Shown: positions 12,121 to 64,000, counted from the first letter of the stretch. The stretch is DNA of 64,000 bases from a virus (IMGVR_UViG_3300038465_000039:25261-89260), one strand, 5' to 3'. Notes: generated by a model not told the origin, from the letters alone. Numbers and translations are program-made.

Positions 12121-12121
12121 C

Positions 12122-12595: not shown

Positions 12596-12633
12596 CTAAA
12601 CTATTAGTATAGATGATTTGCCCCGACATCAAG
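12596..12633 (-). promoter_or_regulatory. Promoter with palindromic operator
   Basis: TTGATG...TATACT (15-nt spacer, short); CTAAACT-ATT-AGTATAG at 12596-12612, identical to 38714-38730. Confidence 0.65.
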
Positions 12634-12634
12634 C

Positions 12635-12979
12635 CTAAAACGGGATCAAATCGATGTATTTTTCGGCCGCAGCCATGGCGAGGCCCAACCGTGGCGTTGC
12701 CGCGTTGAACTGGCTCAAGGTCTTGGCCCGCAGTATGTTTTCGCAGGCCCTGTATAAGTCGGTCAACGGTACGGACGATTCCTGATCTTTCCGCCTCAAT
12801 ATCTCCAGATCGTTCGTTGCCGTCGTCAGTCGCTGATTGGCTTTTCCTAACTCAAGCCGCATCTCGGCAAGAAGCCTGCCGGTCTGGGCGGCCAGGTTCT
12901 CAGCCTCAGTCGTTTTGATGTGCGCAGCCGATTCGATGGAATCAATGAGTCGCTGCAGAACAATCTTTTTCATGGACAT
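12635..12979 (-). CDS. Coiled-coil hypothetical protein
   Basis: Heptad-like composition; coupled to the upstream ORF. Confidence 0.55.
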   Translation of the reverse strand: MSMKKIVLQRLIDSIESAAHIKTTEAENLAAQTGRLLAEMRLELGKANQRLTTATNDLEILRRKDQESSVPLTDLYRACENILRAKTLSQFNAATPRLGLAMAAAEKYIDLIPF

Positions 12980-13338
12980 TATCCGTGCTCCTGGTTCTGG
13001 CGCTTCTTACGTCGGGCCAGCGCCGCCTTCCCTATCTTCGCCGCCATGTCGATACCGGCCGTCGAATGCTGTGCGAGCATCCGGATGCCGCGCGTGATCG
13101 CCTCCGCCATGTCGGCTTCCGTGCCGGCGCAGGCCGAGCACAGCGGCGGCGTCGCGCCTTCAACCTTGACCCATGAGCACGTCAGCGGCGTCTTTCGGCC
13201 GCCGTCTTTCGGCATCAGGCAGGCGTTGTGTTCCGTGCATTTGCAGACACGGCAAGCCGGGCCGTCGTTCTTCAAGGGCTTGTGGACCGGGGGCATCAGC
13301 GTTCCCCCACTGTTGCCACGGGTTGCCGTCGCAGGCAT
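12979..13338 (-). CDS. Cys-rich zinc-binding protein
   Basis: CRVCKCTEHNAC...CSWV...LCSAC. Confidence 0.6.
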   Translation of the reverse strand: MPATATRGNSGGTLMPPVHKPLKNDGPACRVCKCTEHNACLMPKDGGRKTPLTCSWVKVEGATPPLCSACAGTEADMAEAITRGIRMLAQHSTAGIDMAAKIGKAALARRKKRQNQEHG

Positions 13339-13595
13339 TCGTCGAACCTTGACAGGATAGCCCGGCGCATCTGCTTATTCAGCGGCTGGATAGCAAAAAA
13401 CGCCGCCGCCGATACCAGGACAACGTCGAACAGTTCTTCGGCGTCGGGTGCTGTTAGAGCATTGATCGCGGCATCAATTCCTTCGCTGATCTTGCTTGCC
13501 GCATGTTGGACCGCAGGACTAACCGGGCGATCGAACGTGAATTTGGTAATTGATCTATCCATTTTGCGATCTTCCTCACGATGCCAAAGGATTTC

Positions 13596-13632
13596 AAAAA
13601 AGAGCCGGGGACCCATTCGCGGCGTCCCCGGC
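13596..13632 (-). terminator. Intrinsic terminator
   Basis: GCCGGGGAC...GTCCCCGGCTCTTTTTT on the minus strand after the nuclease gene. Confidence 0.7.
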
Positions 13633-13675
13633 AGTTGCCGCCTTGGCCGTGCGGGCCTTCGACGGTCGCGGAAGT

Positions 13676-14668
13676 TCAGCGCGCCCTCGGCGACAACTTG
13701 CCGAACGCATATGGTAGTTGCGCGATATCGAGCTCGGTCACTTCGTGACCGGGCAGCCATCGATCAGTACCGTGCTTTTCCTTCGCCATTTTGTAGAGGC
13801 TGATGGCGATATCGATGTCCTGGCGCGCGCCTTCGAGAATCGGATTACCCGGTGACAGCACGCACGACCACGCATCCGGAGCGCCCTTCTTTGGAATGAA
13901 AACCAGTTGGAAGGCGAAGGTCTTTTGACCGACGCATCGAGCGAGGAAGCTGAGAAGTTGGTCGGCACCCTCAGTCTCCGGTCCAACGATTTCACCGTCG
14001 CCCATAAAAACAAAACCCGCATCAAGTAACGCCGGCATTTGGCGGCGCCCCTCCATGTAGTGCTCGGCCGGAATGTCGTAGCGATAGGTCGAGATATCGA
14101 GGAGGCATGCCTGATCGAGCGGCCGTTCCCGCTCGTTGGCGATTGTCTTGATATCTCCGATGCCTTTGATCTTCAGTTTGTCGAGCCGTGCCTTGCAGCG
14201 GACGCCATCCTTGCGCGTCCAGAAGATCGAGACTTCGGACAGGCCGTTGTCGAGACAGCCCTTGAGTTCGGGGTCGGCATCGAGAACCTGCTTGCAGCCG
14301 AGAACGAAATCATAATCTTCTTGTGCGAGGAGTTCCTGATCTTCCATCAGCTTTGCCTTCGCGGCCTTGGTAAGCTGCGCTTTTTCAGGCGGTGTTAAAT
14401 CGTCGTCCGGTCCGTAAGGACCGCGGACATATTCGGCCGAGAATAGATCAAACCCATCGAGCAAAAGTCGATGTGTCGCTTGGCCCAGGATCAGCGATGG
14501 AGTTTTCTTCTCCTTCGGCCGCTTCGGGTTCATGGCCGACTTGTGCCAGAACAGGTTCGGGCCCTTGAGCAAATCGCGGATGTTGCTCGATCCGAGCGAG
14601 TCGTCAGCATGATAGCGTTCGGAACTGAGACCGATATAGATCCCGTCTGCAAGTTGGGTCTTCGCCAT
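13676..14668 (-). CDS. PD-(D/E)XK exonuclease (DUF3799, RecE/ExoVIII-like)
   Basis: YHADDSLGSSNI, LGQATH, EVSIFW...CKARLD...DIKT. Confidence 0.85.
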   Translation of the reverse strand: MAKTQLADGIYIGLSSERYHADDSLGSSNIRDLLKGPNLFWHKSAMNPKRPKEKKTPSLILGQATHRLLLDGFDLFSAEYVRGPYGPDDDLTPPEKAQLTKAAKAKLMEDQELLAQEDYDFVLGCKQVLDADPELKGCLDNGLSEVSIFWTRKDGVRCKARLDKLKIKGIGDIKTIANERERPLDQACLLDISTYRYDIPAEHYMEGRRQMPALLDAGFVFMGDGEIVGPETEGADQLLSFLARCVGQKTFAFQLVFIPKKGAPDAWSCVLSPGNPILEGARQDIDIAISLYKMAKEKHGTDRWLPGHEVTELDIAQLPYAFGKLSPRAR

Positions 14669-16757: not shown

Positions 16758-16976
16758 TCATGGGATCAGATCCAGCGTCTTGCACTTCAGCGCCTCGGCG
16801 ATCTTGACCAGCTTCACCAGCGTGATCGAGCTCTGACCGGATTCGTATTTCGAAACCTGCATCGGCCCGACGTCGATCACTTCGCCGAGTTCGGGCTGGC
16901 TCATGCCGATCTTCTCCCGGCGCGCGCGGATACGCGCTCCGATCGCTTCATCGGTGACGGGTTTTTTCCGGGTCAT
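16758..16976 (-). CDS. XRE-family HTH regulator
   Basis: IGARIRARREKIGMSQPELG...VSKYESG...KIAEAL. Confidence 0.9.
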   Translation of the reverse strand: MTRKKPVTDEAIGARIRARREKIGMSQPELGEVIDVGPMQVSKYESGQSSITLVKLVKIAEALKCKTLDLIP

Positions 16977-17308
16977 TCCTTCTCCTCGCATACGGCTGGC
17001 GGCAGGATAACGTATAGGTCGATACCGGCCATTTCCAAATTCAAAGCTTCTGCGATCATCGTGTCCATCACGAATCCGGCCGGCGGCCGCGGCGGCCATT
17101 TCTCATAAATCCGTTTCATGGACTCGTCTACGGTCTCGGCAGGATAGTGCACCATCGCGCGGTAGTGATCGCGATTTTGGATGATGACTTTAACAGCCGC
17201 GCACCAGCCGCGCTTGAACTCGGGAGACTCTTCTCTGAAGTAGTGCTCTTGGCAAAACGCTGCCGTCGAAACAAACAGCAGTGCTCCCGTGATGATTGCT
17301 CGCATCAT
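16973..17308 (-). CDS. Hypothetical protein with signal peptide
   Basis: MRAIITGALLFVSTAAFC N-terminus. Confidence 0.55.
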   Translation of the reverse strand: MMRAIITGALLFVSTAAFCQEHYFREESPEFKRGWCAAVKVIIQNRDHYRAMVHYPAETVDESMKRIYEKWPPRPPAGFVMDTMIAEALNLEMAGIDLYVILPPAVCEEKE

Positions 17309-45072: not shown

Positions 45073-45693
45073 ATGAAGATTGTTACACTAGTCGAGGCTC
45101 GCAATACCCTGTCCAAACGGTATTTTACTGGAGTCCCCTGCAAGCGCGGGCACATAAGCGAGCGCAGAACGAGCACAAGGGCTTGTATCGCATGTTCCAG
45201 TTTCCATCGAGAGCAGAACGGTGATCAACACCGCTTTGCATCGCGAAGATGGGCTGCAAATAACAAGGAACGCGGAAAAGCTAACGGCATTAGGTGGCGG
45301 GCTGAGAACCGAGACTTAGTTAAACAAATAAGGCGAAATTGGTACGCTCTAAATTCCGCAAAGTGCGTGGCTGCCACCTTAGAATGGGCGAAGAAAAACC
45401 CGGAGAAGCGAAGCGCCACTGAGCGCCGACGCAAGGCGAGGAAGCGCGCCGCCGGGGGAAATCATACTGCCGACGATGTCGTTGAATTGTACAGGCTACA
45501 GCGTGGCAAGTGTGCTCATGCGTGGTGCAACGTATCCCTAAAACCTGGTTATCATGTTGACCACGTTCAGCCGCTAAAACGCGGCGGATCGAATGATCGG
45601 TCTAACATTCAGTTGCTTTGTCCTAGTTGCAATGTTCGGAAAAGCGCATCTGACCCGATTGAGTGGGCGCAGCGTCATGGACTCTTGTTGTAG
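45073..45693 (+). CDS. HNH homing endonuclease
   Basis: YFTGVPCKRGH; HVDHVQPLKRGGSNDRSNIQLLCPSCN. Confidence 0.9.
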   Translation: MKIVTLVEARNTLSKRYFTGVPCKRGHISERRTSTRACIACSSFHREQNGDQHRFASRRWAANNKERGKANGIRWRAENRDLVKQIRRNWYALNSAKCVAATLEWAKKNPEKRSATERRRKARKRAAGGNHTADDVVELYRLQRGKCAHAWCNVSLKPGYHVDHVQPLKRGGSNDRSNIQLLCPSCNVRKSASDPIEWAQRHGLLL

Positions 45694-51733: not shown

Positions 51734-52453
51734 ATGGCTAAAGAACAAATCCCATACTCTGGGCCTATTGTCACCAAGGCTGAAGCAAAGGCCGCCGGTG
51801 CCAAGAAGTATTTTACAGGCAAGCCCTGCATCCGGGGACATATCTCCGAGAGGTGGGTGAGCACGCGAACTTGTGTTGGGTGTGCGACGTCTGAGCCGAG
51901 GCTTAAGGCTGATCTAAAATACAGGTCGAGTCATAGAGAAGAAATTCGTGAGAAGACCGCAAGGTGGCGGGCAGAGAATCCTGAGCGAACGAGACAATCT
52001 TTAGCCGATTACTTTGCGGCGAATGAAGAGCAGATCAATCAGCGCAGACGCGATGATTATGCGGCAAATGCTCCGGCCAAGCGACTAGAGAAGAGAGAGC
52101 GGTACGCCGCCGATCCACTGCATTACCAGGAAATCAATCGGCGGTACGCCGAGGAAAATCCCGAAGTAATTAGAGCCATCAGGCGTAACCGTCGCGCTCG
52201 CAAGAGAGGCGCTGGCGGTAGCCATACAGCCGCAGATATCGAGTGGTTACTCAACAAACAGAAAAATAAATGCGCGCACTCATGGTGTCGCATCTCTTTG
52301 GCTGATGGTCACCACGTAGATCATATGGTGCCGTTAGCGTTAGGTGGTTCCAATGACCGCAGAAACATTCAACTGCTCTGCGAGCCATGCAATCTGAAAA
52401 AGCACGCAAAGCACCCGATAGACTTTGCGCAGGAGCATGGCTTGCTCCTATAG
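51734..52453 (+). CDS. HNH homing endonuclease (paralog of 45073)
   Basis: YFTGKPCIRGH; HVDHMVPLALGGSNDRRNIQLLCEPCN. Confidence 0.9.
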   Translation: MAKEQIPYSGPIVTKAEAKAAGAKKYFTGKPCIRGHISERWVSTRTCVGCATSEPRLKADLKYRSSHREEIREKTARWRAENPERTRQSLADYFAANEEQINQRRRDDYAANAPAKRLEKRERYAADPLHYQEINRRYAEENPEVIRAIRRNRRARKRGAGGSHTAADIEWLLNKQKNKCAHSWCRISLADGHHVDHMVPLALGGSNDRRNIQLLCEPCNLKKHAKHPIDFAQEHGLLL

Positions 52454-53543: not shown

Positions 53544-53721
53544 CCGAGCGACGCGGCTTCCTCCGCTCGTTCGTCGCAGCCTGTCCGTTTGAGCCCACCC
53601 CTGTCCCGACGGGCAGGCTGCGTTAATTCAACAACCCTCTTTCCTTGATTGGATCGGGGGATTTTTTACATTACACTGCTCCCGTTCATTGCCTGATAGG
53701 CAGAAGGGGATCAGCCAAAAA

Positions 53722-54087
53722 ATGTCAATCACAGACGCATACTTTGCCGGATTGATCGACGGCGAAGGTCACATCACGTTAGAGAAAAGGTCTGGTAAAC
53801 AAGTCGGGACTATCCCGCTCATTCAGGTTGGCATGACTGATCGTGCGATTGTGCAGTTGCTCCAAAAAACTTACGGCGGAAGTTTTGCAGCAAAGAAGAT
53901 AAGAGAACCCTACAAGCAGATGTTCGTTTGGCGCGTGAAGCATGCACAAGCTCGCGTTACTTTGAAACGAATCCTGCCATATCTTCGCGTAAAACGTGAG
54001 GTTGCTCTTACCGTCTATAAATTCGCGTGCGAACGACGTGCATGGATTAGACAAAATACCGGTCGGACGAATTCTATCTCTGTCTGA
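53722..54087 (+). CDS. Single-motif LAGLIDADG endonuclease, free-standing
   Basis: AYFAGLIDGEGHI...ILPYLRVKR. Confidence 0.85.
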   Translation: MSITDAYFAGLIDGEGHITLEKRSGKQVGTIPLIQVGMTDRAIVQLLQKTYGGSFAAKKIREPYKQMFVWRVKHAQARVTLKRILPYLRVKREVALTVYKFACERRAWIRQNTGRTNSISV

Positions 54088-54120
54088 TCCGAACTCATCG
54101 ATTCCACCTGAAGCCAAGTG

Positions 54121-54148
54121 GCAGCACGAGTTTCGTGCTGCTTTTTTT
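54121..54148 (+). terminator. Intrinsic terminator
   Basis: GCAGCACGA-GTT-TCGTGCTGC-TTTTTTT. Confidence 0.75.
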
Positions 54149-54186
54149 GTCCCTCTTTCCGCAACATCAATCAGGAGAAAATTCCC

Positions 54187-55173
54187 ATGACGGACTTTCC
54201 AAACCAGGTCAACGCCTCGCAAGCACCCGGCGTAGCCGGTGACTTCGCATCGGCCAATCCGCGCAGTACCGTTCTGGCGGGCGAAGGTGCCCTGATTTCC
54301 GGTCTCGGTGTCATCAATGGCGCCACCGTACAAGGTGCTGTCGTCGGTCGCTTCGGTTGGTTGACCTATCAGACGATCGACAACGATAATGCTCCGGGCA
54401 CCGTCAACACCTTCGGCAGCGGAGTTCCACAGGGTCTTGTGGCCCGAAGGCAGGTCGGTCTGATCACGCAGTATCTCGGTACATCCGTTTTCTACTTCCA
54501 GTCCGGATTCCAGATCGCGCTCTACAACGAGGTGGATATGTGGGTGACGAACAACGGTGCCACCGCCGCTCAGGTCGGCCAGAAGGCGTTTGCGAGCTAT
54601 GCCGATGGTTCGGCCTCGTTCGCGGCTGCTGGCTCTACTCCGGCTGGTGGTTCCGGTTCGGCCTCGTCGATCGCAGCAGAAACCGCCAACTCGCTGACCA
54701 GCACCATCGTCGGCGACATCTTCACGGCAATCGGGACGCTTACGGGCAACTTCTATCCCGGCAGCATTCTGAGCGGTTCGGGGGTTGCCACCGGGACACA
54801 GATCGTCGCTCAGGTGCTGCCGCTGCTCCCCGGCGAGGCCCTGAACGGCCTCGGTCGATATGAAGTCAATATCCCCGAGCAGAACGTCACATCGACCACG
54901 ATTACCGGTACCTACGGTCTGTTGACCGTTGGCGGTACGGTGGTGAACGGATTCGGTCCCGGGCAGACCGTTAGCGGTTCCGGGGTCACGTCTGGCACCG
55001 TTATCTTCCAGCAACTCACCGGTACTGCGGGCGGAGCCGGAACTTACGTGGTCAGCCCTTCCCAAACCGCCAACTCGACCGCGATCACTGCCGCTGGTTC
55101 GATCGAGACGAAGTGGTACGCCAGGTCGGCGGGAGCCGTCGGCGAGATCATCAAAATCTCGAACATCCAGTAA
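54187..55173 (+). CDS. Head decoration/auxiliary capsid protein
   Basis: FPNQVN..QAPGVAGDFASANPR start; immediately upstream of the major capsid gene. Confidence 0.7.
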   Translation: MTDFPNQVNASQAPGVAGDFASANPRSTVLAGEGALISGLGVINGATVQGAVVGRFGWLTYQTIDNDNAPGTVNTFGSGVPQGLVARRQVGLITQYLGTSVFYFQSGFQIALYNEVDMWVTNNGATAAQVGQKAFASYADGSASFAAAGSTPAGGSGSASSIAAETANSLTSTIVGDIFTAIGTLTGNFYPGSILSGSGVATGTQIVAQVLPLLPGEALNGLGRYEVNIPEQNVTSTTITGTYGLLTVGGTVVNGFGPGQTVSGSGVTSGTVIFQQLTGTAGGAGTYVVSPSQTANSTAITAAGSIETKWYARSAGAVGEIIKISNIQ

Positions 55174-55227
55174 CCGCATTCTGAAAAACCGGAGTGGTCG
55201 TAAACGGCCATTCCTCCATCCTTCACC

Positions 55228-55255
55228 AAGGCGTCTCGTCATGAGCGCCTTTTTT
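55228..55255 (+). terminator. Terminator-like hairpin before the capsid gene
   Basis: AAGGCG-T-CTCG-TCA-TGAGCGCCTTTTTT. Confidence 0.5.
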
Positions 55256-55276
55256 ATTTTGGAAAGGCACTTACAG

Positions 55277-56380
55277 ATGAATCGCCATGAAGCAGCTGCC
55301 GCGTATGCGGCCGAACGCCACATCTACGAGTCCAGCGGTGCGGTATTCGAAAACGTCAAGATGTTCATCCCCGACGGATGGAAACACGACTTCAACCTCG
55401 CGATGGATCAAGGCCTCGCGATGGACGCGCAGCCTCAGTTGTCGACGACACAGAACACCGGTATTCCGGTTTGGCTGTCGACGATGATCGATCCCACGGT
55501 CTATGAGATTCTGTTCTCCCCGCTGAAGGCCGCCGAAATTCTCGGCGAAGTGAAGAAGGGCGACTGGACCTTGAATTCCGTGATGTTCCCGACCGCGGAA
55601 CACACCGGCGAAGTCTCGAGCTATGACGACTACGTCAACAACGGTTCGGTTTCCACCAACCTGAACTTCCCGTCACGCCAGCCGTACCTCTATCAGACCA
55701 TCCTTCAATACGGTGACCGCGAGCTCGATGTCGTCGGCCTCGCCAAGATCAATTGGGTATCGGAACTGAATGCGGCCGCGGCCTGGGCACTGAACCGCTA
55801 TCAGAACCAGACCTACTTCTTCGGGGTGAAAGGTCTTCAGAATTACGGCATCCTGAACGATCCGAACCTGACCGCCGCACTGACGCCCGGACCGAAGGCG
55901 TACGGCAACAATCTGTGGATTACGAACGGCATCATCACCGCAACGCCGAACGAGATCTATCTCGATATCCAGGCACTCATCCTGCAGCTGATCCTGCAGT
56001 CCGGCGGCAACATCAATCAGGAATCGCCGTTCGTGCTGGCGCTTTCACCGGCATCGAAGTTCGCGCTGACCGCAACGAACTCGTTCGACGTCAATGTCAG
56101 CGACTTGCTGAAGCAGATTCCGAACCTGAAGATTATCGATGCGATCCAGTATCAGGCTCAGACGACGGCAAACCCGCAGGGTGTTGTCGGCGGCAACTTC
56201 ATGCAGATGATCTGCACCTCAGTTCGCGGGCAGCAGGCCGGCTTCTGTGCGTTCAACGAGAAGATGCGTTCCCATCGTCTGATCCCCGACCTGTCGTCGT
56301 GGAAACAGAAGCTGAGCGGCGGCACGATGGGTGCTATTTACCGGCAGCCCTGGTGCGTCAGCAGCATGTTGGGTATCTGA
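55277..56380 (+). CDS. Major capsid protein (DUF2184-like)
   Basis: AMDAQP..., GEVKKGDW, SYDDY, YFFGV.GL.NYG.LNDPNL. Confidence 0.88.
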   Translation: MNRHEAAAAYAAERHIYESSGAVFENVKMFIPDGWKHDFNLAMDQGLAMDAQPQLSTTQNTGIPVWLSTMIDPTVYEILFSPLKAAEILGEVKKGDWTLNSVMFPTAEHTGEVSSYDDYVNNGSVSTNLNFPSRQPYLYQTILQYGDRELDVVGLAKINWVSELNAAAAWALNRYQNQTYFFGVKGLQNYGILNDPNLTAALTPGPKAYGNNLWITNGIITATPNEIYLDIQALILQLILQSGGNINQESPFVLALSPASKFALTATNSFDVNVSDLLKQIPNLKIIDAIQYQAQTTANPQGVVGGNFMQMICTSVRGQQAGFCAFNEKMRSHRLIPDLSSWKQKLSGGTMGAIYRQPWCVSSMLGI

Positions 56381-56541
56381 TCCCAATAACTTCATCCAAT
56401 AAGCTGAGCGGCCTCGCGTTTTGTTTTGAGGCTTCGACGATGGCGCGGTGGTGCGGGTAGCTGCATCGTCTGCGGTGCCATGCGTGACGCTCACGTAAGA
56501 TTTCACCCTCCCCCCTCACATGAACAGAGAGAACCGCTAAA

Positions 56542-57162
56542 ATGGCGCTGTCCAAAGCACAGAAGACTGCACGCGCGCAGAAAAAGATCGATGAAGCACG
56601 ACTGCTGCTGGCAACGGCAGAAGCCGAAGGCGCAGAAGCCGGTCTTATCACCGCTCCCTCGATCGGCGGCGAGACGCGAAAGAACACCAGCACTGTCTGG
56701 ATCGGCCTCAAACTGCCGCGAGGTCTCCAGTTGAGGCTCTGCAAGGAAGTCACGGTCGACCGTCCGACTTTCGGTGGTGGTGTCAAACCGACCAGGATGT
56801 TCATGCCTGATCCCGATCAAGGTGAAGTCCGCCTCAAGGGCTATGCCGTCCAGTTCGGCAGAATCCCCAACTATTCCATCATCGGCGATTTCGGTCTGAC
56901 CGAGGTCGATCGTGCATGGTGGGAAAAATGGAAGGCGCAGAACAGCGGCTTCGAGTTGCTGAAGACCGGTCTGCTCTTCGAGCACGGCGAGAAGGCCAGC
57001 GTTGAATCCTATGCTGTCGAGCATGCTTCCATGAAATGCGGTCTTGAACCGATGGATCCGGCCGGTGATGAACGTGGTGAAAAGGCTCCCAACGACAATC
57101 TGACCGATGTCGAGCCTGATTCCGATCGTGCAAAGCAGCGCCGCTCATCGGCAGTGGCGTAA
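56542..57162 (+). CDS. Conserved virion-associated protein
   Basis: LKLPRGL...FGLTEVDRAWWEKW; position after the capsid gene. Confidence 0.6.
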   Translation: MALSKAQKTARAQKKIDEARLLLATAEAEGAEAGLITAPSIGGETRKNTSTVWIGLKLPRGLQLRLCKEVTVDRPTFGGGVKPTRMFMPDPDQGEVRLKGYAVQFGRIPNYSIIGDFGLTEVDRAWWEKWKAQNSGFELLKTGLLFEHGEKASVESYAVEHASMKCGLEPMDPAGDERGEKAPNDNLTDVEPDSDRAKQRRSSAVA

Positions 57163-57167
57163 CGACG

Positions 57168-57659
57168 ATGGGATGGTGGGGTGGTGGTTGTCAGGGTGGA
57201 GCGATCGCTGCCCTCAACTATCCGCAATGGATACAACTGTTCCCGCAATTCGCCACCAACCCGGGCCAACCCATCGTCCAACTCTACTACGATTTGGCTG
57301 GCAGCGTCTGGCTGCGCAATGACGGTACCGGGCCGGTCACTGATCCGAACCTGCAAGCCAACTTGATGAACCTGCTGACGGCTCATGTGACGACGCTGTT
57401 CAGCGGGCCGGATGGTAACGATCCTTCTGGTCTGGTCGGTCGTATCTCGAGCGCGAACGAGGGTTCGGTAAGTGTGTCGACCGAGTATGAATCGACGATG
57501 AATAGTGCTTGGTTTGTACAAACTGGGGCTGGTAGCGCATTTTGGCAGGCCACTGCCGGGTTCCGTTCGTTTCCTGCCTATATCCCGGGCCCGACACGGT
57601 TCGGCAATGGCATCGGATATGGCGGTTTCCGCGGTGGTCGTGGCTGCAGGGCATTCTGA
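57168..57659 (+). CDS. DUF4054-like head-tail connector
   Basis: FPQF, LLTAH, GRISSANEGSVSVS, WFVQT..G..FW. Confidence 0.8.
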   Translation: MGWWGGGCQGGAIAALNYPQWIQLFPQFATNPGQPIVQLYYDLAGSVWLRNDGTGPVTDPNLQANLMNLLTAHVTTLFSGPDGNDPSGLVGRISSANEGSVSVSTEYESTMNSAWFVQTGAGSAFWQATAGFRSFPAYIPGPTRFGNGIGYGGFRGGRGCRAF

Positions 57660-57985
57660 TGGCAAAGCGCAATGCTGTTTCGTTTATCGTCGAAACAATG
57701 GAGATTCCGGGCAAGCCTGGCGCAATTCAATTCGTTAATCGCGAAGGGATTGTATGCGGTCTCAATCACTGCTGTCCCTGCGGTTGCGGTAAGTGGTCTT
57801 TCATTAGAATGAACCCTGATGCATGGGCACCGGGAACGCTCCCGATGTGGAAATGCTGCGATCCGGGTACCGACGATGGACTCTACATGACACTGACGCC
57901 ATCGATCGGTATCAAGCCGCAAGATGCCGCTGGTGCTTACCATTGGCACGGCTACTTGAAAAATGGTGTGTTTGAGGAATGCTGA
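57659..57985 (+). CDS. DUF6527-like protein, copy 3
   Basis: CPCGCG...W...TLTPSI...HWHGYLKNG. Confidence 0.7.
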   Translation: MAKRNAVSFIVETMEIPGKPGAIQFVNREGIVCGLNHCCPCGCGKWSFIRMNPDAWAPGTLPMWKCCDPGTDDGLYMTLTPSIGIKPQDAAGAYHWHGYLKNGVFEEC

Positions 57986-57987
57986 AA

Positions 57988-58266
57988 ATGGCAGATGAAG
58001 AAAAGCGCAAGACCGTGAGCGTGCGCAGCGATCTCGATCGTCCGATCTCGTTGCATCTGCATACGACGGTTGCTGATGACGGCGGCGGCCGTCCTTTTCA
58101 GGGACGCGACCTGACGACGGCGACAACGCTGAACCCCGGCAACAATCCCGGCATCGACAAGGAATTTTTTGAGAAGTGGCAGGAACAGAACAAAGGTTCG
58201 TCGCTTGCACCGCTTTTCACCGCCACCGACGAAGACAAACCCGAAAGCGCAGAGCGCAAGGAATAA
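57988..58266 (+). CDS. Hypothetical protein, partial paralog of 56542
   Basis: IDKEFFEKWQEQN versus VDRAWWEKWKAQN. Confidence 0.55.
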   Translation: MADEEKRKTVSVRSDLDRPISLHLHTTVADDGGGRPFQGRDLTTATTLNPGNNPGIDKEFFEKWQEQNKGSSLAPLFTATDEDKPESAERKE

Positions 58267-58271
58267 AGCAC

Positions 58272-58520
58272 ATGGATATCGACGCAATGCTCAAGCAATT
58301 GACCCAGCTTTTGGCATTCAAAAACCGAGTTATGGCAATTCTGCCTGATCTGGAGGCGCTCGTTGCCAGCGGCAAGGAGACTTCCGAGGATTTAGGGAAG
58401 GTTTTGGGCGAGCTTGACCCCAAAGACCCGATTGCCGGGGCTACGGGGCTCGGTGGTGCGTCAGAACCTATCCTGGGCACGGATGCCCCGGCCGATCGCA
58501 ACGCGCCAGCGGGCGCCTAA
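58272..58520 (+). CDS. Hypothetical protein
   Basis: AAGGA RBS, MDIDAMLK start. Confidence 0.5.
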   Translation: MDIDAMLKQLTQLLAFKNRVMAILPDLEALVASGKETSEDLGKVLGELDPKDPIAGATGLGGASEPILGTDAPADRNAPAGA

Positions 58521-58523
58521 TCC

Positions 58524-59060
58524 ATGGCGTCCATCAGCGGCGGCGACAAGCTTCGCGACGCTCTGAACAAGATTGCCGCCAAGCTGGACAAGGGCGGAAC
58601 TTTGAAGGTTGGATTTTTGTCCGGCGCCACCGATACCGAAGGGATGTCGATCCCGCTCAAGGCTGCTTTGAACGAGTTCGGTCATACCATGCCGAACGGC
58701 GCCGAAGTGCCGCCTCGTCCTTTTTTCAGGAACATGATTCAGGCCAAGGCCAAGAATTGGCCCGACGCCATCGCCGGGCAACTCAAGGCCACGAATTATG
58801 ATGTTAACCTAACGCTCCAGCGGGCAGGCGCGGCGATCAAGGGGCAGTTACAGGAAAGCATCCTTGATCTTTGGTCACCGGAGCTTTCCGAGGTCACAGT
58901 CAAGAAAAAAGGTTTCGAAAAACCCTTGATTGAAAAAGGTGATATGATCAATGCCGCTGCGTGGGAAGTTAACGCTTCTGGTAAAGGGTCACAGTCCGCA
59001 GCTGAGGATAACGCCAGTAGCTTTGCCGCTGGAGCGGCGAAAGCCACGAAACCGAAATAA
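58524..59060 (+). CDS. Neck/tail-completion protein
   Basis: LKVGF, NEFG, PPRPFFR, KKKGFEKPLI. Confidence 0.75.
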   Translation: MASISGGDKLRDALNKIAAKLDKGGTLKVGFLSGATDTEGMSIPLKAALNEFGHTMPNGAEVPPRPFFRNMIQAKAKNWPDAIAGQLKATNYDVNLTLQRAGAAIKGQLQESILDLWSPELSEVTVKKKGFEKPLIEKGDMINAAAWEVNASGKGSQSAAEDNASSFAAGAAKATKPK

Positions 59061-59091
59061 CGTTTCAAACGCAACACCAACGGAGTCACCG

Positions 59092-60201
59092 ATGAAAAAG
59101 CTTGCTCTCCTCGCCATCGCAGCATCGCTGTCTCTGATGGCTTTCCCGGCGATGGCCGGCAATACGAATTTCCTGACGGAACGCAACGGTGCGATTACGT
59201 TTCCGCTGTCGCCACCGAACCGGGCCAATTCGACGCCCGGTTTCATCGACAACATGATCATCGGCCAGACCACTCCGGCGCTCGGCTATTTTACGCAGGT
59301 CATCGTCTCCGGTGGGACACCGGTCCTCTGTCTCGTGACGCCATGCTATCTTCAGGGTGTTGCCGCAGCCCAAGGTGGAGTTATCCAGTTGCTCGGCGGA
59401 CCGTCCTCAACATCTGGCAATGCCGGCGGTGCTGCACAGGTTCTCGGTGGTGTTCCCGGAGCAACCGGTATCGGTGGAGCGGCTTCAGTGGCTGGTGGAG
59501 CAGGTGGTGCGACGTCAGGGGCAGGCGGGGCGGCATCTGTCACTGGTGGCGCCGGAACAGCAGGTAACGCCGCCGGCGGAGCCGCTTCTCTCATCGGCGG
59601 CGCCGGTCAAGGTTCAGCCAATGGTGGTGCAGTCACGATTACAGGCGGTGTTGCCGGGGCCACGGGGCTCGGTGGTGCGGTAAACGTGACGGCCGGAGCT
59701 CCGGTAGCCGGAAACGGTTCAAACGTCACGGTGACCGCCTCAGCGGGTGCCGGCGGAACCAATGCTGGTGGTAACGTCAACTTGGTTCCTGGAGCCGCTG
59801 TCTCAACCGGGGCACCGGGAACCATTCAGGTCAACGGGAACCCTGGTCTGATCTGTCATAACGCTACGCTGGTCCCGAATTCGAACTCACTGACGTTCTT
59901 TATCGCTACCCGCCCGATGTTGATCGAGCAGATCAGCGCGGTCTGGTCCGTGGCGGCGGGCGGGACATCCACGGTTGGCGTCACGCATGACACCGGAACC
60001 GGCGCACCGGGTTCCGGTACCGACATGCTGGCTACGGACTTCAACCTGAACACCACTGCGAATACGACAAACGTCGGGTCGCTGTCGACGACCGTCGCGA
60101 CATTGACGCTCGCGGCTGGGGATCGTGTCGCGATGAAGGCCGCGAACGGGACGCAATCCACCGCGCAGTTCAACGTTACGTTCTGCGCCGCTCCGCAGTA
60201 A
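59092..60201 (+). CDS. Gly-rich fibre-like protein with signal peptide
   Basis: MKKLALLAIAASLSLMAFPAMA; GGA-x repeats; beta-rich C-terminal domain. Confidence 0.7.
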   Translation: MKKLALLAIAASLSLMAFPAMAGNTNFLTERNGAITFPLSPPNRANSTPGFIDNMIIGQTTPALGYFTQVIVSGGTPVLCLVTPCYLQGVAAAQGGVIQLLGGPSSTSGNAGGAAQVLGGVPGATGIGGAASVAGGAGGATSGAGGAASVTGGAGTAGNAAGGAASLIGGAGQGSANGGAVTITGGVAGATGLGGAVNVTAGAPVAGNGSNVTVTASAGAGGTNAGGNVNLVPGAAVSTGAPGTIQVNGNPGLICHNATLVPNSNSLTFFIATRPMLIEQISAVWSVAAGGTSTVGVTHDTGTGAPGSGTDMLATDFNLNTTANTTNVGSLSTTVATLTLAAGDRVAMKAANGTQSTAQFNVTFCAAPQ

Positions 60202-60256
60202 AGCTCTGGTCTACCGGAAGGTGTTCGTATAAGACGGATACCTTCCGGAGGCTTCG

Positions 60257-60655
60257 ATGCCAACCAACGACGGCGGCCACGTCATTGCCCTCTTCACTGA
60301 GGGCACCGCAACTGACGAAATGAACGCGCTGGACCAACTCGGTCCACTGGCACGTCAAGTCATCTACGATTCGCCGATCCGTTACTCGGCTGGTGCTGTG
60401 CTGAAACAACTACGGGATTACGAGGAAAGCGAGCGCCAGAAGCTGCCGCCGGAAATACGGCATCTGGTACACCTCAACCCTCGCGATCCCAAGATCGACG
60501 CCGCAATCGCCAAAGGCCTCGTCGATGACAGCATCAAGACGATGCTGAAAGATCGTTCCGAACAGGATGCAATGCTCGGTGTCAAACCGCTGGTGCCGAA
60601 GATCGGCGTGAAGACGATGAGGGAGCAGCGCAGGCTGCGCAAAGTCCGATGGTGA
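60257..60655 (+). CDS. Hypothetical protein
   Basis: GGAGG RBS partly within a hairpin at about 60214-60248. Confidence 0.55.
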   Translation: MPTNDGGHVIALFTEGTATDEMNALDQLGPLARQVIYDSPIRYSAGAVLKQLRDYEESERQKLPPEIRHLVHLNPRDPKIDAAIAKGLVDDSIKTMLKDRSEQDAMLGVKPLVPKIGVKTMREQRRLRKVRW

Positions 60656-61059
60656 CGAACTTAAGGGCCACTGCAAATTCGGTAACGAAGGTCATCAATC
60701 CGAATTTTCCTGCAACCTTGTTCATATCGACGCCGCCCATCGTAGTGAATTTCGTTCCGGTCCCGCAGTACGACAAGGCATCGATCATTGCTCAGGTGCA
60801 GCCGTTGTCATCGAAGGATTTACGGCTGCTCGATGCGCTCAATATCCAGGGCGCCGAGAAAGCGATCTATCTGAACGGTCCAGCGCTCGCCATATCGCGC
60901 ATCAAAAAACTCGGTGGCGATCTAATCGTGTTCGCAAACGGTGTTTTGCCGGAAGGCAATACGTGGCTTGTTCTCGCACAGCTTGAGCTGTGGGGATCTG
61001 GCGGAACTTGGTCTAAATGCGGCGTAATTTTGCAGGATGACATTCCTGATCCGTCCTGA
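60649..61059 (+). CDS. Head-closure/head-tail joining protein
   Basis: AQVQPLS..DL..LD.LNIQG...GGDL...WLV..QLE.W. Confidence 0.7.
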   Translation: MVTNLRATANSVTKVINPNFPATLFISTPPIVVNFVPVPQYDKASIIAQVQPLSSKDLRLLDALNIQGAEKAIYLNGPALAISRIKKLGGDLIVFANGVLPEGNTWLVLAQLELWGSGGTWSKCGVILQDDIPDPS

Positions 61060-61109
61060 CTTCATTTTCGGCAGTCTAACTTAGACAGCGCAAACGGAAG
61101 TAACCCGAC

Positions 61110-61685
61110 ATGAAAAATCTGAAGCTGGCGGTCGCGCTATGCGCGTCGCTTGTCGCCTTCGTGTGTTCGGCGGCCGCTCAATCCGGACTGCGACAGATTC
61201 CACTTGGTTTCTGTTCATTGTCGTCGATGAGCGCCGCGACAGGATTCTCGTCCTGTACGATGTCGACCTTTACGGGTACCGGCAATGGAACAAGCCTGAC
61301 AATATCTTCGGTCGCCGGTTCGTTGTTCTCGGGCGAAATTCTTTCAGGGACCGGAGTGCCGAGCGGGACATTTGTCGTTTCACAATCATCCGGCCCGACA
61401 GGTGGTGCCGGTGTATATGTGACAAGCCAACCGACTACTTCGAACGCGGCCAGCATTACTGCAAGCGGGCTTCCCACCGGAATAACCTATGCCGTGATAT
61501 GCGCCTACGTTCAGGGTGTCGTCTACAAGGACGATCCCAACGGTACGGCACCAACAGGTACCCCAGGTAGCGGCGGTCAGGGTATCTCGGCCGGACAATG
61601 CATCCCGTACAACGGCACGTTCTCGGCTCTTCAGTTTATCCAGCAGACTTCCGGCGCAATCCTTGGTGCGAGCTTTTATCGATGA
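61110..61685 (+). CDS. Ser/Thr/Gly-rich protein with signal peptide
   Basis: MKNLKLAVALCASLVAFVCSAAA-Q; shares a module with the decoration protein. Confidence 0.7.
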   Translation: MKNLKLAVALCASLVAFVCSAAAQSGLRQIPLGFCSLSSMSAATGFSSCTMSTFTGTGNGTSLTISSVAGSLFSGEILSGTGVPSGTFVVSQSSGPTGGAGVYVTSQPTTSNAASITASGLPTGITYAVICAYVQGVVYKDDPNGTAPTGTPGSGGQGISAGQCIPYNGTFSALQFIQQTSGAILGASFYR

Positions 61686-64000
61686 AAACCCTGCGAACCG
61701 TACTGCTGATCTTCGGTCTCACGGGATCGATCGCGCACGCCCAGGCACCCGGTACCGGTTCTCCGATGGTGCCGAATGCGGGGGCATCGTCCGGCGGTGG
61801 AAGCGGAACGATCACCGCAGGAACCACTGTCACGTCGGGGATCACGTCGGGTAATCTGATCGGCAGCGCGTCGAACAAGGTTGTGGATAGCGGGGTCGCG
61901 TACAACAACTTGGCACTCCTCAACGCCAGCAACAATTTTACCGGCGCGCTGAATAGCTTCATCGGTCTTGGTGCCTCGACCGCGGCGATCGGCGGTTGCA
62001 CGATCGGTAGCAACGCATTCTGCGTGACCGGTTCAAGCGCGCTCGGTAATACGTCCATCGGTGCCGGTTCCGCGATCACCTCCAGCGGCCCCGGTGGTGC
62101 GCTGACGGCTGCGGCCTATACGGCGATTGGCACGAGCGGCGCGACGATTCCGCTGCTCAATGGAGCCAACACGTTTTCGGGCAATACTACCGTCTCTAGT
62201 GCATCGTTCGGCCTGTCCGGTAACATCAATGCGGCGGCGTGGACGACGAGCGGTATCCGCTACAAAAACGTCGCGGCGACCCTGACCGATACCAGTTCGA
62301 CCGGAACGGTGGCGGCGGCCTATACCGATGTGTGGGGCGGCAACACCATCGCGGCGTCGAGCGTGACGACGTTCACCAACTACTACGGGGCGTATTTCAA
62401 GGCTCCGGTGACAGGCACCAACGTCACCTTCACGAACTCTTATGCGCTCGGTGCGGACAGCATCAACGCGACGACGCTATATCAGGGCGGCACGGCGCTG
62501 GGCACGGCGGCGCTCGTGGCCACCGGCACCTCGGGCGGCACGCTCTGCCTGCTCAACACCGCATGCACATGGTCGTCAGCCCAACTCTTCCCCGCAGGCT
62601 CTGCCACCACTCCCGGCGTTGCTGTCGGTATCGCAGGGACGGGGCTGTATAGTGTTTCGACGACGGGATTGGGGCTGTCGGTTAATCAAGTTAACAAGTT
62701 GGACTACGGAATTTCGTTAGCTGCTAATTGGAACATGTCGGCCCCGCTTAATATGCTCGGTTTCAATATTGGGGCAGTAGGAAATTTGTTGTTTAATTTT
62801 GGTAGCACTCAAATTGGCACGCCTACTGCCGCCACATATCAACTCGGTCCAACCGCAGCTTCTCCCGTCGCTCAAACCCTTATTTTGTCTCCACCTGTTT
62901 CCACCGGCACCTCCAACACCGCAGGTGCCAACGCCACGATACAGGCTTCTCTCCCGACTGGAACTGGTACTGCGGGGCTGCTGAACATCCTCTCCGGCTT
63001 TTCCGGCGTCTCCGGTGCCCAGACCGTCACCTTCACCAATTCCAGCGCCAACGTCTCACTTGCCGCGCAGCCTTATGTCCCCGGCCAGTCCGGCCAGTTC
63101 TCCACCACGGGCGCGCTGCCGACGAACTTTGCCACGGCGACCACGTACTTCGTCTGCTCGACCGGGCTCGCGACCGGCGCGTTTCAGGTCTCGCTCACCT
63201 ACGCCAACGGTTCCTGCGGCAGCATCATCACGGCGGGAAGTGCTGGCAGCGGCACCCAGACATGGACGCCCAACACCACGACGCAAAATCCGGGATCGCT
63301 GGTGGCGCAGTTCGGGCCATCGGCGCTGACGGGGAGCCAGACGACGAGTGCGCTGGCGATTAGTCAGGTGTGGAATACTAGTGGGGTTGCGGATGCGGCG
63401 CTAAGGGTAAATATCACAAATATTGCTAGTGGGGCGGCGTCGATCATCGCTGATTTCCAAGTTGGCGGATCAAGCGTTTACAATGTAAGTTCGGGCGGAA
63501 CAGTAAATCTTGCAGGCGGCATTGGGGCTGCTAGTTTCTTTGGACTTGTCGGCACTCGCTCGATCTTGACGTCGCCGGGGGCTGGCGCGTGGCAATTTGG
63601 TAATAGCAATTCCGCTACTCCCGTCGCTCAAATCCTGTCCTTCCAATCCGGCGTCGGCACTCAAATCTCAGGTCAGAACGCCACTATCATCGGTTCCCTC
63701 TCCACCGGCTCAACCGGCGTCCCCGGAGACATCATATTTCAAACCGGCGTCACCGGATCAGGAACCACGGTTGCGGGTGCTGCGACCACGGCGATGACGA
63801 TCAAGGGCGTGACGCAGAACGTGAACTTCGCCGGACAGATCACGGTCGCGGCCATGTCCCAATCATCCGCCGCTCAATCGGGTACGGTCTGCTACAACAC
63901 TTCTGGCGGCGTGATAAACTATGATGCTACGCTCGGTTGCTTGACATCATCCGCCCGCTTCAAGACCGACATCAAGGACATCACAACAGCCGAAGCGCTC
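61682..64000 (+). CDS. Fibre/spike-like protein with signal peptide and start of a peptidase S74 chaperone domain (runs off the window)
   Basis: Hand translation open to 64000; MKTLRTVLLIFGLTGSIAHA-Q; ends ...TSSARFKTDIKDI. Confidence 0.8.
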   Translation, partial: MKTLRTVLLIFGLTGSIAHAQAPGTGSPMVPNAGASSGGGSGTITAGTTVTSGITSGNLIGSASNKVVDSGVAYNNLALLNASNNFTGALNSFIGLGASTAAIGGCTIGSNAFCVTGSSALGNTSIGAGSAITSSGPGGALTAAAYTAIGTSGATIPLLNGANTFSGNTTVSSASFGLSGNINAAAWTTSGIRYKNVAATLTDTSSTGTVAAAYTDVWGGNTIAASSVTTFTNYYGAYFKAPVTGTNVTFTNSYALGADSINATTLYQGGTALGTAALVATGTSGGTLCLLNTACTWSSAQLFPAGSATTPGVAVGIAGTGLYSVSTTGLGLSVNQVNKLDYGISLAANWNMSAPLNMLGFNIGAVGNLLFNFGSTQIGTPTAATYQLGPTAASPVAQTLILSPPVSTGTSNTAGANATIQASLPTGTGTAGLLNILSGFSGVSGAQTVTFTNSSANVSLAAQPYVPGQSGQFSTTGALPTNFATATTYFVCSTGLATGAFQVSLTYANGSCGSIITAGSAGSGTQTWTPNTTTQNPGSLVAQFGPSALTGSQTTSALAISQVWNTSGVADAALRVNITNIASGAASIIADFQVGGSSVYNVSSGGTVNLAGGIGAASFFGLVGTRSILTSPGAGAWQFGNSNSATPVAQILSFQSGVGTQISGQNATIIGSLSTGSTGVPGDIIFQTGVTGSGTTVAGAATTAMTIKGVTQNVNFAGQITVAAMSQSSAAQSGTVCYNTSGGVINYDATLGCLTSSARFKTDIKDITTAEAL

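Follow-up and report, generated by a model that had tools for sequence, protein, structure and literature searches.

In an uncultured contractile-tailed phage, three genes that share a strand and lie among the neck genes encode proteins (ORF1 to ORF3) that begin with predicted export leaders and carry closely paired cysteines, and because of these two features they most likely fold outside the cytoplasm, the compartment where the other parts of the particle are assembled. The phage is represented by an 89-kb myophage contig, and the window is the whole stretch of 64,000 nucleotides analyzed here. What is observed is that the leaders are there, are conserved, and go together with paired cysteines; from this we infer export and cleavage, disulfide formation, contact between ORF2 and the fibers, and attachment to the virion. 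In the literature, we found no description of signal-bearing, cysteine-paired neck fiber proteins of this kind.

All three ORFs were confirmed where a sequence-only reading had placed them, and they are indeed interleaved with neck genes, as it had claimed (Table 1). The Neck1 gene ends 32 nt before the start of ORF1, and the 132-aa gene that follows ORF1 gave no match in Pfam and PHROG searches. The neck terminator (PF23961) and then the sheath are encoded at the start of the contig. Gene spacing is tight or overlapping, with ORF1 to ORF3 inside the late structural operon, and sites resembling promoters or terminators are not enriched there. In the cultured Pseudomonas phage Orisa03, which shares the backbone, the capsid-to-sheath interval contains no fiber gene; the ORF1 to ORF3 genes are therefore accessory insertions. 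The nearest Atlas clusters of the three proteins are all viral (77 to 100% viruses), which marks the proteins as phage-type by sequence. Searches against Pfam and PHROG (E ≤ 0.01) returned no family for any of them, tail fiber families included, so their assignment as virion parts rests on position, modules, and relatives. Nor was there a tblastn match among 50,697 phage records, and their kin are confined to uncultured viral contigs.

Table 1. Features of the neck-region locus and the related decoration gene (window coordinates)
Feature	Position	Strand	Content or basis
Shared-module copy in the leaderless capsid decoration protein (gene 54118-55173)	54961..55098	+	BLASTP, profile searches
Neck1/tail-completion gene	58524..59060	+	phrog_222, E 1.8e-37; directly 5' of ORF1
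ORF1, 369 aa	59092..60201	+	Leader, ~60-aa N-terminal region, stalk, C-terminal jelly-roll
ORF1 signal peptide MKKLALLAIAASLSLMAFPAMA	59092..59157	+	Predicted cut before GNT
132-aa gene between ORF1 and the phrog_1912 gene	60257..60655	+	Context
phrog_1912 structural gene	60649..61059	+	PHROG match
ORF2, 191 aa	61110..61685	+	Leader and small jelly-roll core; Cys pairs 35/49 and 131/164
ORF2 signal peptide MKNLKLAVALCASLVAFVCSAAA (...FVCSAAA/QSG)	61110..61178	+	Predicted cut before QSG
Shared module in ORF2	61332..61469	+	BLASTP to decoration protein
ORF3, 773 codons, open at contig end	61682..64000	+	Leader, fiber, start of S74-type region
ORF3 signal peptide MKTLRTVLLIFGLTGSIAHA (...SIAHA/QAP)	61682..61741	+	Predicted cut before QAP
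SPMVP motif, mature ORF3 N terminus	61760..61774	+	Kept in fibers 3' of an ORF2-type gene
Conserved 90-aa fiber module (SFGLSGNI...)	62204..62473	+	Query for related loci
SSARFK Ser/Lys motif, start of S74-type region	63947..63964	+	ORF3 residues 756-761; preceded by C737/C753 pair

Leaders were called with a home-made n/h/c heuristic rather than a trained predictor, and its visible errors comprise three false positives (P0076, P0210, and L181) and some mis-started ORFs scored as leaderless. The signal peptides proposed earlier at the three starts were recovered with scores of 4.5 (ORF1), 5.2 (ORF2), and 4.9 (ORF3) and predicted cleavage after residues 22, 23, and 20, respectively. The same rule flagged 27 of 1,701 candidate starts (six frames, whole genome) and none of 23 leaderless structural proteins; by this sequence-level comparison, the three leaders are genuine and above chance. 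A Sec-type leader cut by signal peptidase I was defined by a positive n-region, an uncharged hydrophobic h-region of about 7 to 15 residues, and small residues at -3 and -1. ORF1 combines KK, LALLAIAASLSLMAF, and AMA/G; ORF2 has K..K, LAVALCASLVAFV, and AAA/Q; and ORF3 has K..R, TVLLIFGLTG, and AHA/Q, and all three are predicted to belong to this type. Direct reading of the leaders found no lipobox ([LVI][ASTVI][GAS]C with Cys at +1) and no RR of a twin-arginine motif (S/T-R-R-x-F-L-K), and a lipoprotein (signal peptidase II) or Tat signal was rejected accordingly. SAR domains were likewise rejected, given the clear AxA sites, the strongly hydrophobic cores, and proteins without an enzyme domain in Pfam. 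A GGAG ribosome-binding site lies 7 nt upstream of the ORF1 start and a GGAAG upstream of ORF2, and the ORF3 start overlaps the ORF2 stop as ATGA.

Leaders recur among the relatives: in 17 of 36 IMG/VR loci with the ORF3 module and, among the 120 relatives listed for each family, in 80 for ORF3 (of 221), 63 for ORF1 (of 844), and 107 for ORF2 (of 128). In 94 rows of the ORF2 family, the mean majority fraction rises from 0.34 (residues 2 to 23) to 0.76 (residues 24 to 49), so that conservation begins exactly at the predicted cut, behind a variable leader, and the site itself carries Ala at -3 in 78%, Ala at -1 in 83%, and Gln at +1 in 84% of rows. The ORF1 alignment, which mixes in leaderless rows, has no clear step (0.34 versus 0.31 across the cut).

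Closely paired cysteines are present in all three proteins with the motifs quoted beforehand (CLVTPC, GCTIGSNAFC, LCLLNTAC, and VCYN...GC). The mature parts hold four cysteines in ORF1 (positions 80, 85, 255, and 365), four in ORF2 (35, 49, 131, and 164), and eight in ORF3 (106/114, 289/295, 492/512, and 737/753). When proteins were sorted as even (above zero), odd, or zero in cysteine number, leader-bearing members of the ORF3 family gave 72/6/2 versus 14/16/10 for leaderless ones (120 listed of 221), and those of the ORF1 family 62/1/0 versus 24/27/6 (120 listed of 844), the sequences compared being related to one another. Cysteine density in the ORF3 family was 9.2 per 1,000 residues with a leader versus 2.95 without (MWU p = 1.9e-11). 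Among 120 listed of 128 ORF2 relatives, 105 leader-bearing proteins were even and 2 odd. The pattern recurred for the ORF1 C-terminal domain in IMG/VR (10/0/1 leader-bearing versus 18/33/12 leaderless) and for all ORFs of at least 100 aa in 41 related loci (65/10/5 versus 140/138/98). Cysteine counts in the leader-bearing group span 2 to 30 and still are even, whereas leaderless relatives in all three families have random parity or no cysteine. Within the genome, 10 of 10 leader-bearing proteins are even, and the 23 leaderless structural proteins are mixed. The GGxTIG....x motif carries both cysteines in 16 copies, neither in 18, and a single one in none, i.e., the pair comes or goes as a unit in 34 of 34 copies. 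Across the ORF2 family, leader and Cys at LG[FY]C are associated (152/23/9/59; Fisher p = 1e-27). With phylogenetic control, the test on this family lacked power (four supported independent pairs; median p of 1). Together, the conserved leaders, the cut-site conservation in the ORF2 family, and the even cysteine numbers that go with a leader give comparative support to the earlier proposal that the proteins fold and oxidize in the periplasm; export to an oxidizing compartment is strongly supported at the sequence level.

The proposal that all three ORFs look like fibers held for ORF1 and ORF3. ORF1 has an N-terminal region of about 60 aa with the C80/C85 pair, then a long stalk rich in Gly and Ala, and at the C terminus (residues ~250 to 369) a jelly-roll domain that contains C255 and C365; AF2 gave pLDDT values of 81 to 95 for residues 250 to 369 and about 50 to 60 in the stalk. 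Its fold matches are weak, with capsid chains of phages GP4 (8h89_J; 0.56) and Pam1 (7eel_H; 0.55) by target TM. Among its 844 relatives, some leaderless ones carry a PF09956 cement domain, and leaderless head fibers fused to this domain (Phage_cement_2) share the Gly-rich stalk and the same C-terminal jelly-roll. ORF1 differs from these in starting with a signal peptide and the cysteine-pair region, and Pfam detected no cement or decoration domain (PF09956 or PF23982) in either ORF1 or ORF2.

ORF2, on the other hand, was rejected as a fiber: its AF2 model (pLDDT 93.9) is a small jelly-roll protein with an inserted beta domain of about 70 aa. The ORF belongs to a large uncharacterized phage family newly recognized here (1,342 representatives at E ≤ 1e-3) and matched nothing in Pfam, PHROG, or PDB sequences. 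The module that it had been suggested to share with the capsid decoration protein is real (residues 75 to 120 versus 282 to 327; 50% identity over 46 aa; BLASTP E = 3e-9). It is, however, a promiscuous domain of about 70 aa (phrog_21413-type) that also occurs in terminator, sheath, and baseplate wedge proteins, and the likeness of ORF2 to the PF23982 (XM1 gp53-like) decoration protein is limited to this accessory 46-aa module. In related loci, the gene order is phrog_1912, ORF2-type gene, terminator, sheath, with the phrog_1912 gene directly upstream of the ORF2-type gene in L182, L214, and L256. The slot is occupied by leaderless proteins with no or one cysteine in L192, L214, and L256 and by a leader-bearing protein with a cysteine pair in L182. 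By synteny, ORF2 occupies a position that related myophages conserve within the neck module.

ORF3 has a Gly/Thr/Ser-rich fiber body with its cysteines in four close pairs and 221 relatives. Its SFGLSGNI module retrieved 36 IMG/VR loci. In 9 of 11 distinct loci, a leader-bearing ORF lies at most 400 nt downstream of an ORF2-type gene, and the mature end reads PM[VI]P in six of these nine as well as in the window; from this arrangement, ORF2 and the signal-bearing ..SPMVP.. fiber are recognized as a new cassette. The S74 motif SSARFK noted earlier is present, but only the first 18 residues of the region fall within the window (nt 63947 to 64000). The motif has the S-x-x-R-x-K Ser/Lys dyad of Peptidase_S74 and aligns with VSDERLK of the 1,639-aa tail fiber of the same phage (PF13884, E = 2e-11). 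With the contig ending after those 18 residues, Pfam returned no PF13884 match for the part of ORF3 inside the window; the domain is present in some of the listed ORF3 relatives. Read in frame, the beginning of the contig codes for the final helix (...AIQELKADNDNLR...), and relative to the other S74 fiber of the phage, about 37 to 45 residues are missing. Leaderless relatives (e.g., P0011, P0012, P0014, and P0093) share the fiber body modules, among them SFGLSGNI at 70 to 88% identity, and the same putative C-terminal Ser/Lys chaperone region. Unlike these, ORF3 and the leader-bearing majority of its listed relatives start with a leader instead of a particle-binding N terminus, and their paired cysteines are absent from the leaderless forms. 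The K1F endosialidase and the T5 L-shaped tail fiber are leaderless and end in an S74 intramolecular chaperone.

We lean modestly toward a route in which exported, periplasm-folded ORF1 and ORF3 fibers, with ORF2 as partner, dock late on the neck or head. ORF1 and ORF3 would be peripheral fibers and ORF2 a small jelly-roll partner, all of structural type. Each would cross the inner membrane by means of a cleavable Sec-type signal peptide, and signal peptidase I would leave Gly or Gln at +1. Folding in the periplasm would turn the paired cysteines into disulfides; ORF3 probably trimerizes there with help of its C-terminal S74-type chaperone region, and the mature fiber may offer its conserved ..SPMVP.. 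end as a binding site for ORF2. Since capsid and tail assembly is cytoplasmic, exported parts would reach the particle only once the inner membrane is breached at lysis, or in the lysate. Holin lesions would connect cytoplasm and periplasm while the outer membrane is still intact, and the three products would then dock as late external appendages. Mixing solely at lysis would entail fast dilution, which counts against attachment.

Alternatively, the three proteins could be exported and disulfide-bonded and never join the particle, acting free or envelope-bound in receptor masking against loss to debris, in superinfection block, or as adhesins. Exported receptor blockers encoded by phages exist (T5 Llp, lambda-type Cor), and the genes are insertions relative to Orisa03. 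Moreover, the leader of both fibers sits where leaderless relatives have a particle-binding N terminus (fiber N termini or PF09956), so that the exported forms are without a known anchor, in line with the Pfam and PHROG results; by this comparison, anchorless forms would count against virion attachment. We nevertheless consider a nonvirion role rather unlikely, given the position in a tightly spaced late structural operon, the conserved neck-module slot of ORF2, and the S74-type chaperone region of ORF3, which is typical of virion fibers. In addition, the baseplate-distal fibers of the same phage, which match PHROG tail-fiber families, carry leaders too; were leader-bearing fibers excluded from the virion, this phage would be left without an obvious tail fiber.

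Two further explanations concern the start sites or the use of the leaders. An internal start downstream of the leader could yield a cytoplasmic copy for virions, with the long form exported to serve some other role, and a Met is kept in the mature SPMVP motif of ORF3-type fibers and found at positions 16 and 21 of ORF1. This is very unlikely: upstream of the conserved ATG, ORF3 and six motif-bearing related loci have no consistent Shine-Dalgarno-like sequence, L088 lacks the Met, and a cytoplasmic form would not select even cysteine counts. Least probable of all, the hydrophobic N termini would serve oligomerization or assembly of cytoplasmic proteins, or the true starts would lie elsewhere. 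The ORF1 frame is open upstream to 58951, but this extension overlaps the Neck1 gene. The tight coupling of leaders to paired cysteines also speaks against it, as does the fact that hundreds of relatives keep an n-h-c layout with small -3 and -1 residues while the leader letters vary.

More broadly, and tentatively, tailed phages of a large uncultured group may build their particles in two compartments, with the ORF2-type docking adaptor switched between cytoplasmic and exported forms within one slot. If so, heads and tails would be cytoplasmic, and host-recognition parts and neck or head appendages would be exported by Sec, disulfide-bonded in the periplasm, and attached only once the holin has connected the compartments. 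The ORF2-type jelly-roll would then be the docking adaptor for ..SPMVP.. fibers, and a single neck slot would hold either a cytoplasmic, cysteine-free or an exported, disulfide-bonded form.

Among known systems, the coat proteins pIII and pVIII of Ff filamentous phages are virion proteins with signal peptides, such as are predicted on ORF1 to ORF3. Of the two, pIII matures at the periplasmic face and contains disulfide-bonded domains joined with linkers rich in Gly. However, Ff virions take shape at the envelope and leave through it by extrusion, whereas the phage studied here is tailed, with cytoplasmic capsid and tail, and the coat proteins have no sequence relation to ORF1 to ORF3. Among late or accessory phage proteins, SAR endolysins, the T4 antiholin RI, spanin lipoproteins, T5 Llp, and Cor-type receptor blockers also use Sec and reach the envelope by N-terminal signals, but they act in lysis or exclusion and are not structural proteins of fiber type; a SAR domain stays uncleaved and is weakly hydrophobic, in contrast to leaders with AxA cut sites. 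The fibritin gene (wac) of T4 is likewise a fiber gene among neck and terminator genes, and fibritin whiskers decorate the neck and are added late. Fibritin has no signal peptide, unlike ORF1 to ORF3 as predicted, and the likeness drawn here is one of gene position.

PHROG and Pfam matches identified the phage as contractile-tailed. The contig is a single one of 89,260 bp, the final 64,000 bases of which form the window, and ORF1, ORF2 and ORF3 lie among its neck genes (see the table). Identity of the capsid protein to those of cultured phages was at most 49%. In Pseudomonas phage Orisa03, the best cultured capsid match, only five small genes separate the capsid from the sheath genes, none of them a fibre gene; ORF1-3 have therefore been inserted into a conserved block of head-tail connector genes. 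No ORF2-type gene was found in Orisa03 by local HMM. A scan for promoters and terminators gave counts equal to those in shuffles, and no tRNA was found.

Features of the phage genome (unprefixed coordinates are window positions; L001 is the start of the same contig)
Feature	Coordinates	Basis or remark
Protease fusion, scaffold, then XM1-gp53-like decoration protein	54118-55173	PHROG/Pfam
DUF2184-type major capsid protein	55241	PHROG/Pfam
phrog_2085, DUF4054, then Neck1/tail completion	Neck1 at 58524	PHROG/Pfam
ORF1, then 132-aa gene, then phrog_1912	ORF1 59092-60201 (+); phrog_1912 at 60649	PHROG (phrog_1912)
ORF2, then ORF3	61110-61685 (+); 61682-64000 (+)	after phrog_1912, up to contig end
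118-aa leader-bearing gene	contig start	ahead of neck terminator
Neck terminator PF23961	L001 638-1384	contig start
Sheath, tube, chaperone, tape measure, baseplate, two leader-bearing tail fibres, endolysin	after terminator	PHROG/Pfam
phrog_21413-type module (~70 aa) in decoration protein	residues 269-339 (gene 54118-55173)	
phrog_21413-type module (~70 aa) in neck terminator	L001 638-1384	
phrog_21413-type module (~70 aa) in sheath	L001 1408-3405	
phrog_21413-type module (~70 aa) in baseplate wedge	L001 9762-11639	two copies
phrog_21413-type module in exported ORF2 (predicted)	61332-61469	
Further leader-starting gene	L001 151-507 (the 118-aa gene above)	4 mature Cys
Further leader-starting gene	L001 19744-20013	4 mature Cys
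Further leader-starting gene	L002 3773-4522	0 mature Cys
Further leader-starting gene	280-810 (-)	2 mature Cys
Further leader-starting gene	16973-17305 (-)	2 mature Cys
Endonuclease-like gene	51734-52453	translation
Endonuclease-like gene	45073-45693	translation
Endonuclease-like gene	53689-54087	translation; LIDGEGH motif
Endonuclease-like gene	L001 3419-4168	translation

The sequence-only reading had described three fibre-like ORFs with signal-type N-termini, and both the ORFs and these N-termini were recovered when the translations were re-read. Our own n/h/c rule scored the three leaders (predicted Sec-type signal peptides) at 4.5 to 5.2 and placed the cut behind residue 22 in ORF1, residue 23 in ORF2 and residue 20 in ORF3. 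Applied to all six frames of the genome, the rule flagged 27 of 1701 candidate starts, roughly ten of which are real leader genes, and none of 23 leaderless structural proteins; it errs in a few cases. The start sites of the ORFs are plausible as judged from sequence, with GGAG 7 nt upstream of ORF1 and an ATGA overlap between ORF2 and ORF3. The mature proteins contain four (ORF1), four (ORF2) and eight (ORF3) cysteines, for the most part in close pairs. Throughout the genome, all ten leader-bearing proteins have even cysteine counts, among them the tail fibres with PHROG matches, and the 23 leaderless structural proteins comprise 9 with even, 10 with odd and 4 with zero counts. Five genes besides ORF1-3 and the tail fibres start with leaders and gave no Pfam or PHROG match where tested.

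Searches of 50,697 cultured phage records revealed no DNA match for positions 54000 to 64000, and tblastn against cultured phages gave no match for ORF1-3 or for leaderless ORF2-type proteins. Relatives were obtained from metagenomes, and the nearest ESM-Atlas clusters were 77 to 100% viral. As a single query in IMG/VR, ORF3 yielded no relative, and an alignment of whole mosaic fibres (A1) contained no sufficiently conserved stretch. Using a 90-aa conserved module of the fibre, 36 IMG/VR loci were fetched; in the genome collection this module occurred at a single locus, on a MAG contig whose fibre is leaderless. The ORF1 C-terminal domain is encoded at 79 IMG/VR loci, and a leader-bearing ORF2 at four. 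One protein relative used as query (P0003) returned short motif matches only (L003-L048), which were excluded from the analysis. A profile of the ORF2 core brought out a large, unannotated family of small proteins, with 1342 of 1.84 billion cluster representatives matching at E ≤ 1e-3 and leaderless forms at 591 or more IMG/VR loci.

Leaders are widespread among these relatives. They were present in 80 of the 120 ORF3 relatives listed (of 221), in 63 of the 120 listed for ORF1 (of 844) and in 107 of the 120 listed for ORF2 (of 128), the remaining 13 being mostly mis-started or truncated. Among the 36 loci with the ORF3 module, 17 encode a leader, and the N terminus was undeterminable in 5. In the ORF2 family, sequence conservation begins precisely at the predicted cut, with conserved Ala at -3/-1 and Gln at +1.

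Presence of a leader was accompanied by even numbers of mature cysteines (given here as even above zero/odd/zero). Counts for the ORF3 family were 72/6/2 with and 14/16/10 without a leader, and for the ORF1 family 62/1/0 and 24/27/6. The C-terminal domain of ORF1, counted in the 74 ORFs that are complete among the 79 IMG/VR loci, gave 10/0/1 in leader-bearing versus 18/33/12 in leaderless proteins, and distinct ORFs of at least 100 aa from 41 related loci gave 65/10/5 versus 140/138/98. Binomial p values for parity ranged from 5e-11 to 7e-29 in leader-bearing and from 0.78 to 0.95 in leaderless groups, the rows behind these counts being related sequences. Since even counts extend over a range of 2 to 30 cysteines, they are not explained by inheritance of a single state. 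The cysteine pair in GGCTIG....C is all-or-none, with both residues in 16 copies, neither in 18 and no mixed copy.

A similar picture emerged for 144 representatives of the ORF2 family, in which a leader was present in 106 (92/7/7) and absent from 38 (9/10/19; the leaderless ones with cysteines include several fragments). In leaderless members, the conserved cysteines are substituted (PLGFC to PLGYQ or PLGYG). Of 80 IMG/VR loci of this family, 76 encode a protein that lacks a leader, with even, odd and zero counts in 3, 39 and 34 cases. Leader and cysteine at the PLGFC position were associated (152/23/9/59; n = 243, 88 skipped; Fisher p 1e-27); on a FastTree tree of 177 masked ORF2-core rows, this link involved minimum changes of 21 and 17, with just four supported independent pairs.

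ORF1 consists of the leader, an N-terminal region of about 60 aa with C80 and C85, a Gly/Ala-rich stalk and a C-terminal jelly roll. AF2 modelled the jelly roll with a pLDDT of 81 to 95 and the stalk, poorly modelled as a monomer, with about 50 to 60. In fold, the C-terminal domain came closest, though weakly, to capsid chains of phage GP4 (TM by target 0.56) and phage Pam1 (0.55), at E 2e-3 to 4e-3, and the domain also occurs in small viral proteins of 135 to 149 aa. Leaderless ORF1 relatives frequently start with a PF09956 cement-type domain, and thus this stalk and tip are also found in head fibres anchored to the capsid.

For ORF2, AF2 predicted (pLDDT 93.9) a leader helix and a small jelly roll with a beta domain inserted at residues ~50 to 120. 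No convincing structure or sequence match was found for it, with none in the PDB by sequence. Its core is a generic jelly roll without a Foldseek match at E ≤ 0.001, and the top VIA Z of 7.8, to the receptor-binding domain of PM2 P1, lies inside the tool's stated background. In three related myophages (L182, L214 and L256), an ORF2-type gene lies between phrog_1912 and the terminator, with the sheath next; a fourth locus, L192, agrees only on the downstream side. The protein in this slot is leaderless with one, zero and zero cysteines in L192, L214 and L256, and has a leader and one cysteine pair in L182. ORF2 thus represents a conserved small neck-block gene with cytoplasmic and, as predicted, exported versions. 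Small proteins made up of the leaderless core (82 to 102 aa, motif PLGYxQ...VRWRDDG...SYY) are very common in phages; they have no Pfam, PHROG or PDB relative, and the neighbours of their genes are varied structural genes (loci L182-L261, proteins P0363-P0506). A module common to ORF2 and the decoration protein, also noticed in the sequence-only reading, was confirmed, 46 residues aligning at 50% identity (E 3e-9). This phrog_21413-type domain is promiscuous and also inserted in the terminator, sheath and wedge protein; the phage seems to use it as a decoration on many of its outer surfaces.

ORF2-type genes are often followed by a fibre gene. A leader-bearing ORF of at least 100 aa was present within 400 nt downstream, often via ATGA, at 13 of 16 fetched loci, or 9 of 11 after collapsing duplicates, where one miss had no DNA left downstream; this co-occurrence carries an ascertainment bias, most loci having been fetched with ORF2. 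The mature fibre start Q..VPN.GSPM[VI]P was found at six of these nine loci, in the window and at one more IMG/VR locus (L250), and, as judged from their N termini, in none of the 17 leader-bearing fibres fetched by the ORF3 module. From these sequences we infer that ORF2 may bind this end of the mature fibre. The 118-aa gene directly after ORF3 may be part of the same cassette. At another IMG/VR locus, L087, an ORF2-type gene located between those for portal and protease is followed by a gene (10311-14246) for a leader-bearing fibre of 1311 aa containing 30 cysteines, and hence the cassette can move within the structural module.

Judged on sequence grounds, the three proteins are very probably exported and oxidatively folded. 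Explanations in which the leaders are non-functional or the genes are read from dual starts are weak. An internal start at the conserved SPMVP Met was rejected as the main reading, as ORF3 and six motif-bearing loci have no consistent Shine-Dalgarno-like sequence there and the Met is absent in one locus (L088).

Given export, attachment to particles is somewhat favoured by where the genes sit in the operon, by the neck slot, by modules of phage type and by the baseplate-distal fibres of this phage, which bear leaders yet match PHROG tail-fibre families. The main rival, that the proteins are exported but act outside the virion as receptor maskers or adhesins, is favoured by two points: the N-terminal anchor has been lost, and the genes are accessory. 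In the textbook scheme, assembly of tailed phages is wholly cytoplasmic. A physical route is available in principle: holin lesions have the size to let big complexes through and form before the outer membrane fails, so that periplasmic fibres and cytoplasmic particles could mix inside the still-closed envelope. Supplementary SignalP tables aside, no account of tailed phages with Sec-exported fibres turned up in the literature searched, which included passages of PMC3556154, PMC13412088 and PMC13001222. Should fibres that are exported and disulfide-bonded truly belong to the virion, morphogenesis would in its final step rely on host Sec, Dsb and the order of lysis events, disulfides would stabilise the fibres outside the cell, and host-range work on such receptor-binding proteins would need periplasmic expression. 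A leader with an even cysteine count could serve as a simple genomic marker sorting phage proteins by compartment.

ORF3 itself is a mosaic fibre, and its leaderless relatives have typical fibre N termini (MADxKLSALT..., MADINLKTLTPD...). Its SSARFK motif (residues 756 to 761) can be aligned to the end of the 1639-aa fibre of this phage, which matches PF13884. The contig stops 18 residues into the S74-type chaperone region of ORF3 (63947-64000), and the last helix of a region of this kind is encoded, in frame, at the contig start (L001 1-140). About 37 to 45 residues are absent in between; the assembly is therefore unclosed there, and the record contains ORF3 only in part. The 1639-aa tail fibre ends in an almost identical stretch, ELKADNDNLR, and this near-repeat may have broken the assembly. 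In the translations, look-alikes of homing/HNH-type endonuclease genes also interrupt the structural module at four positions, with common KRYFTG.PC.RGHISER N termini.
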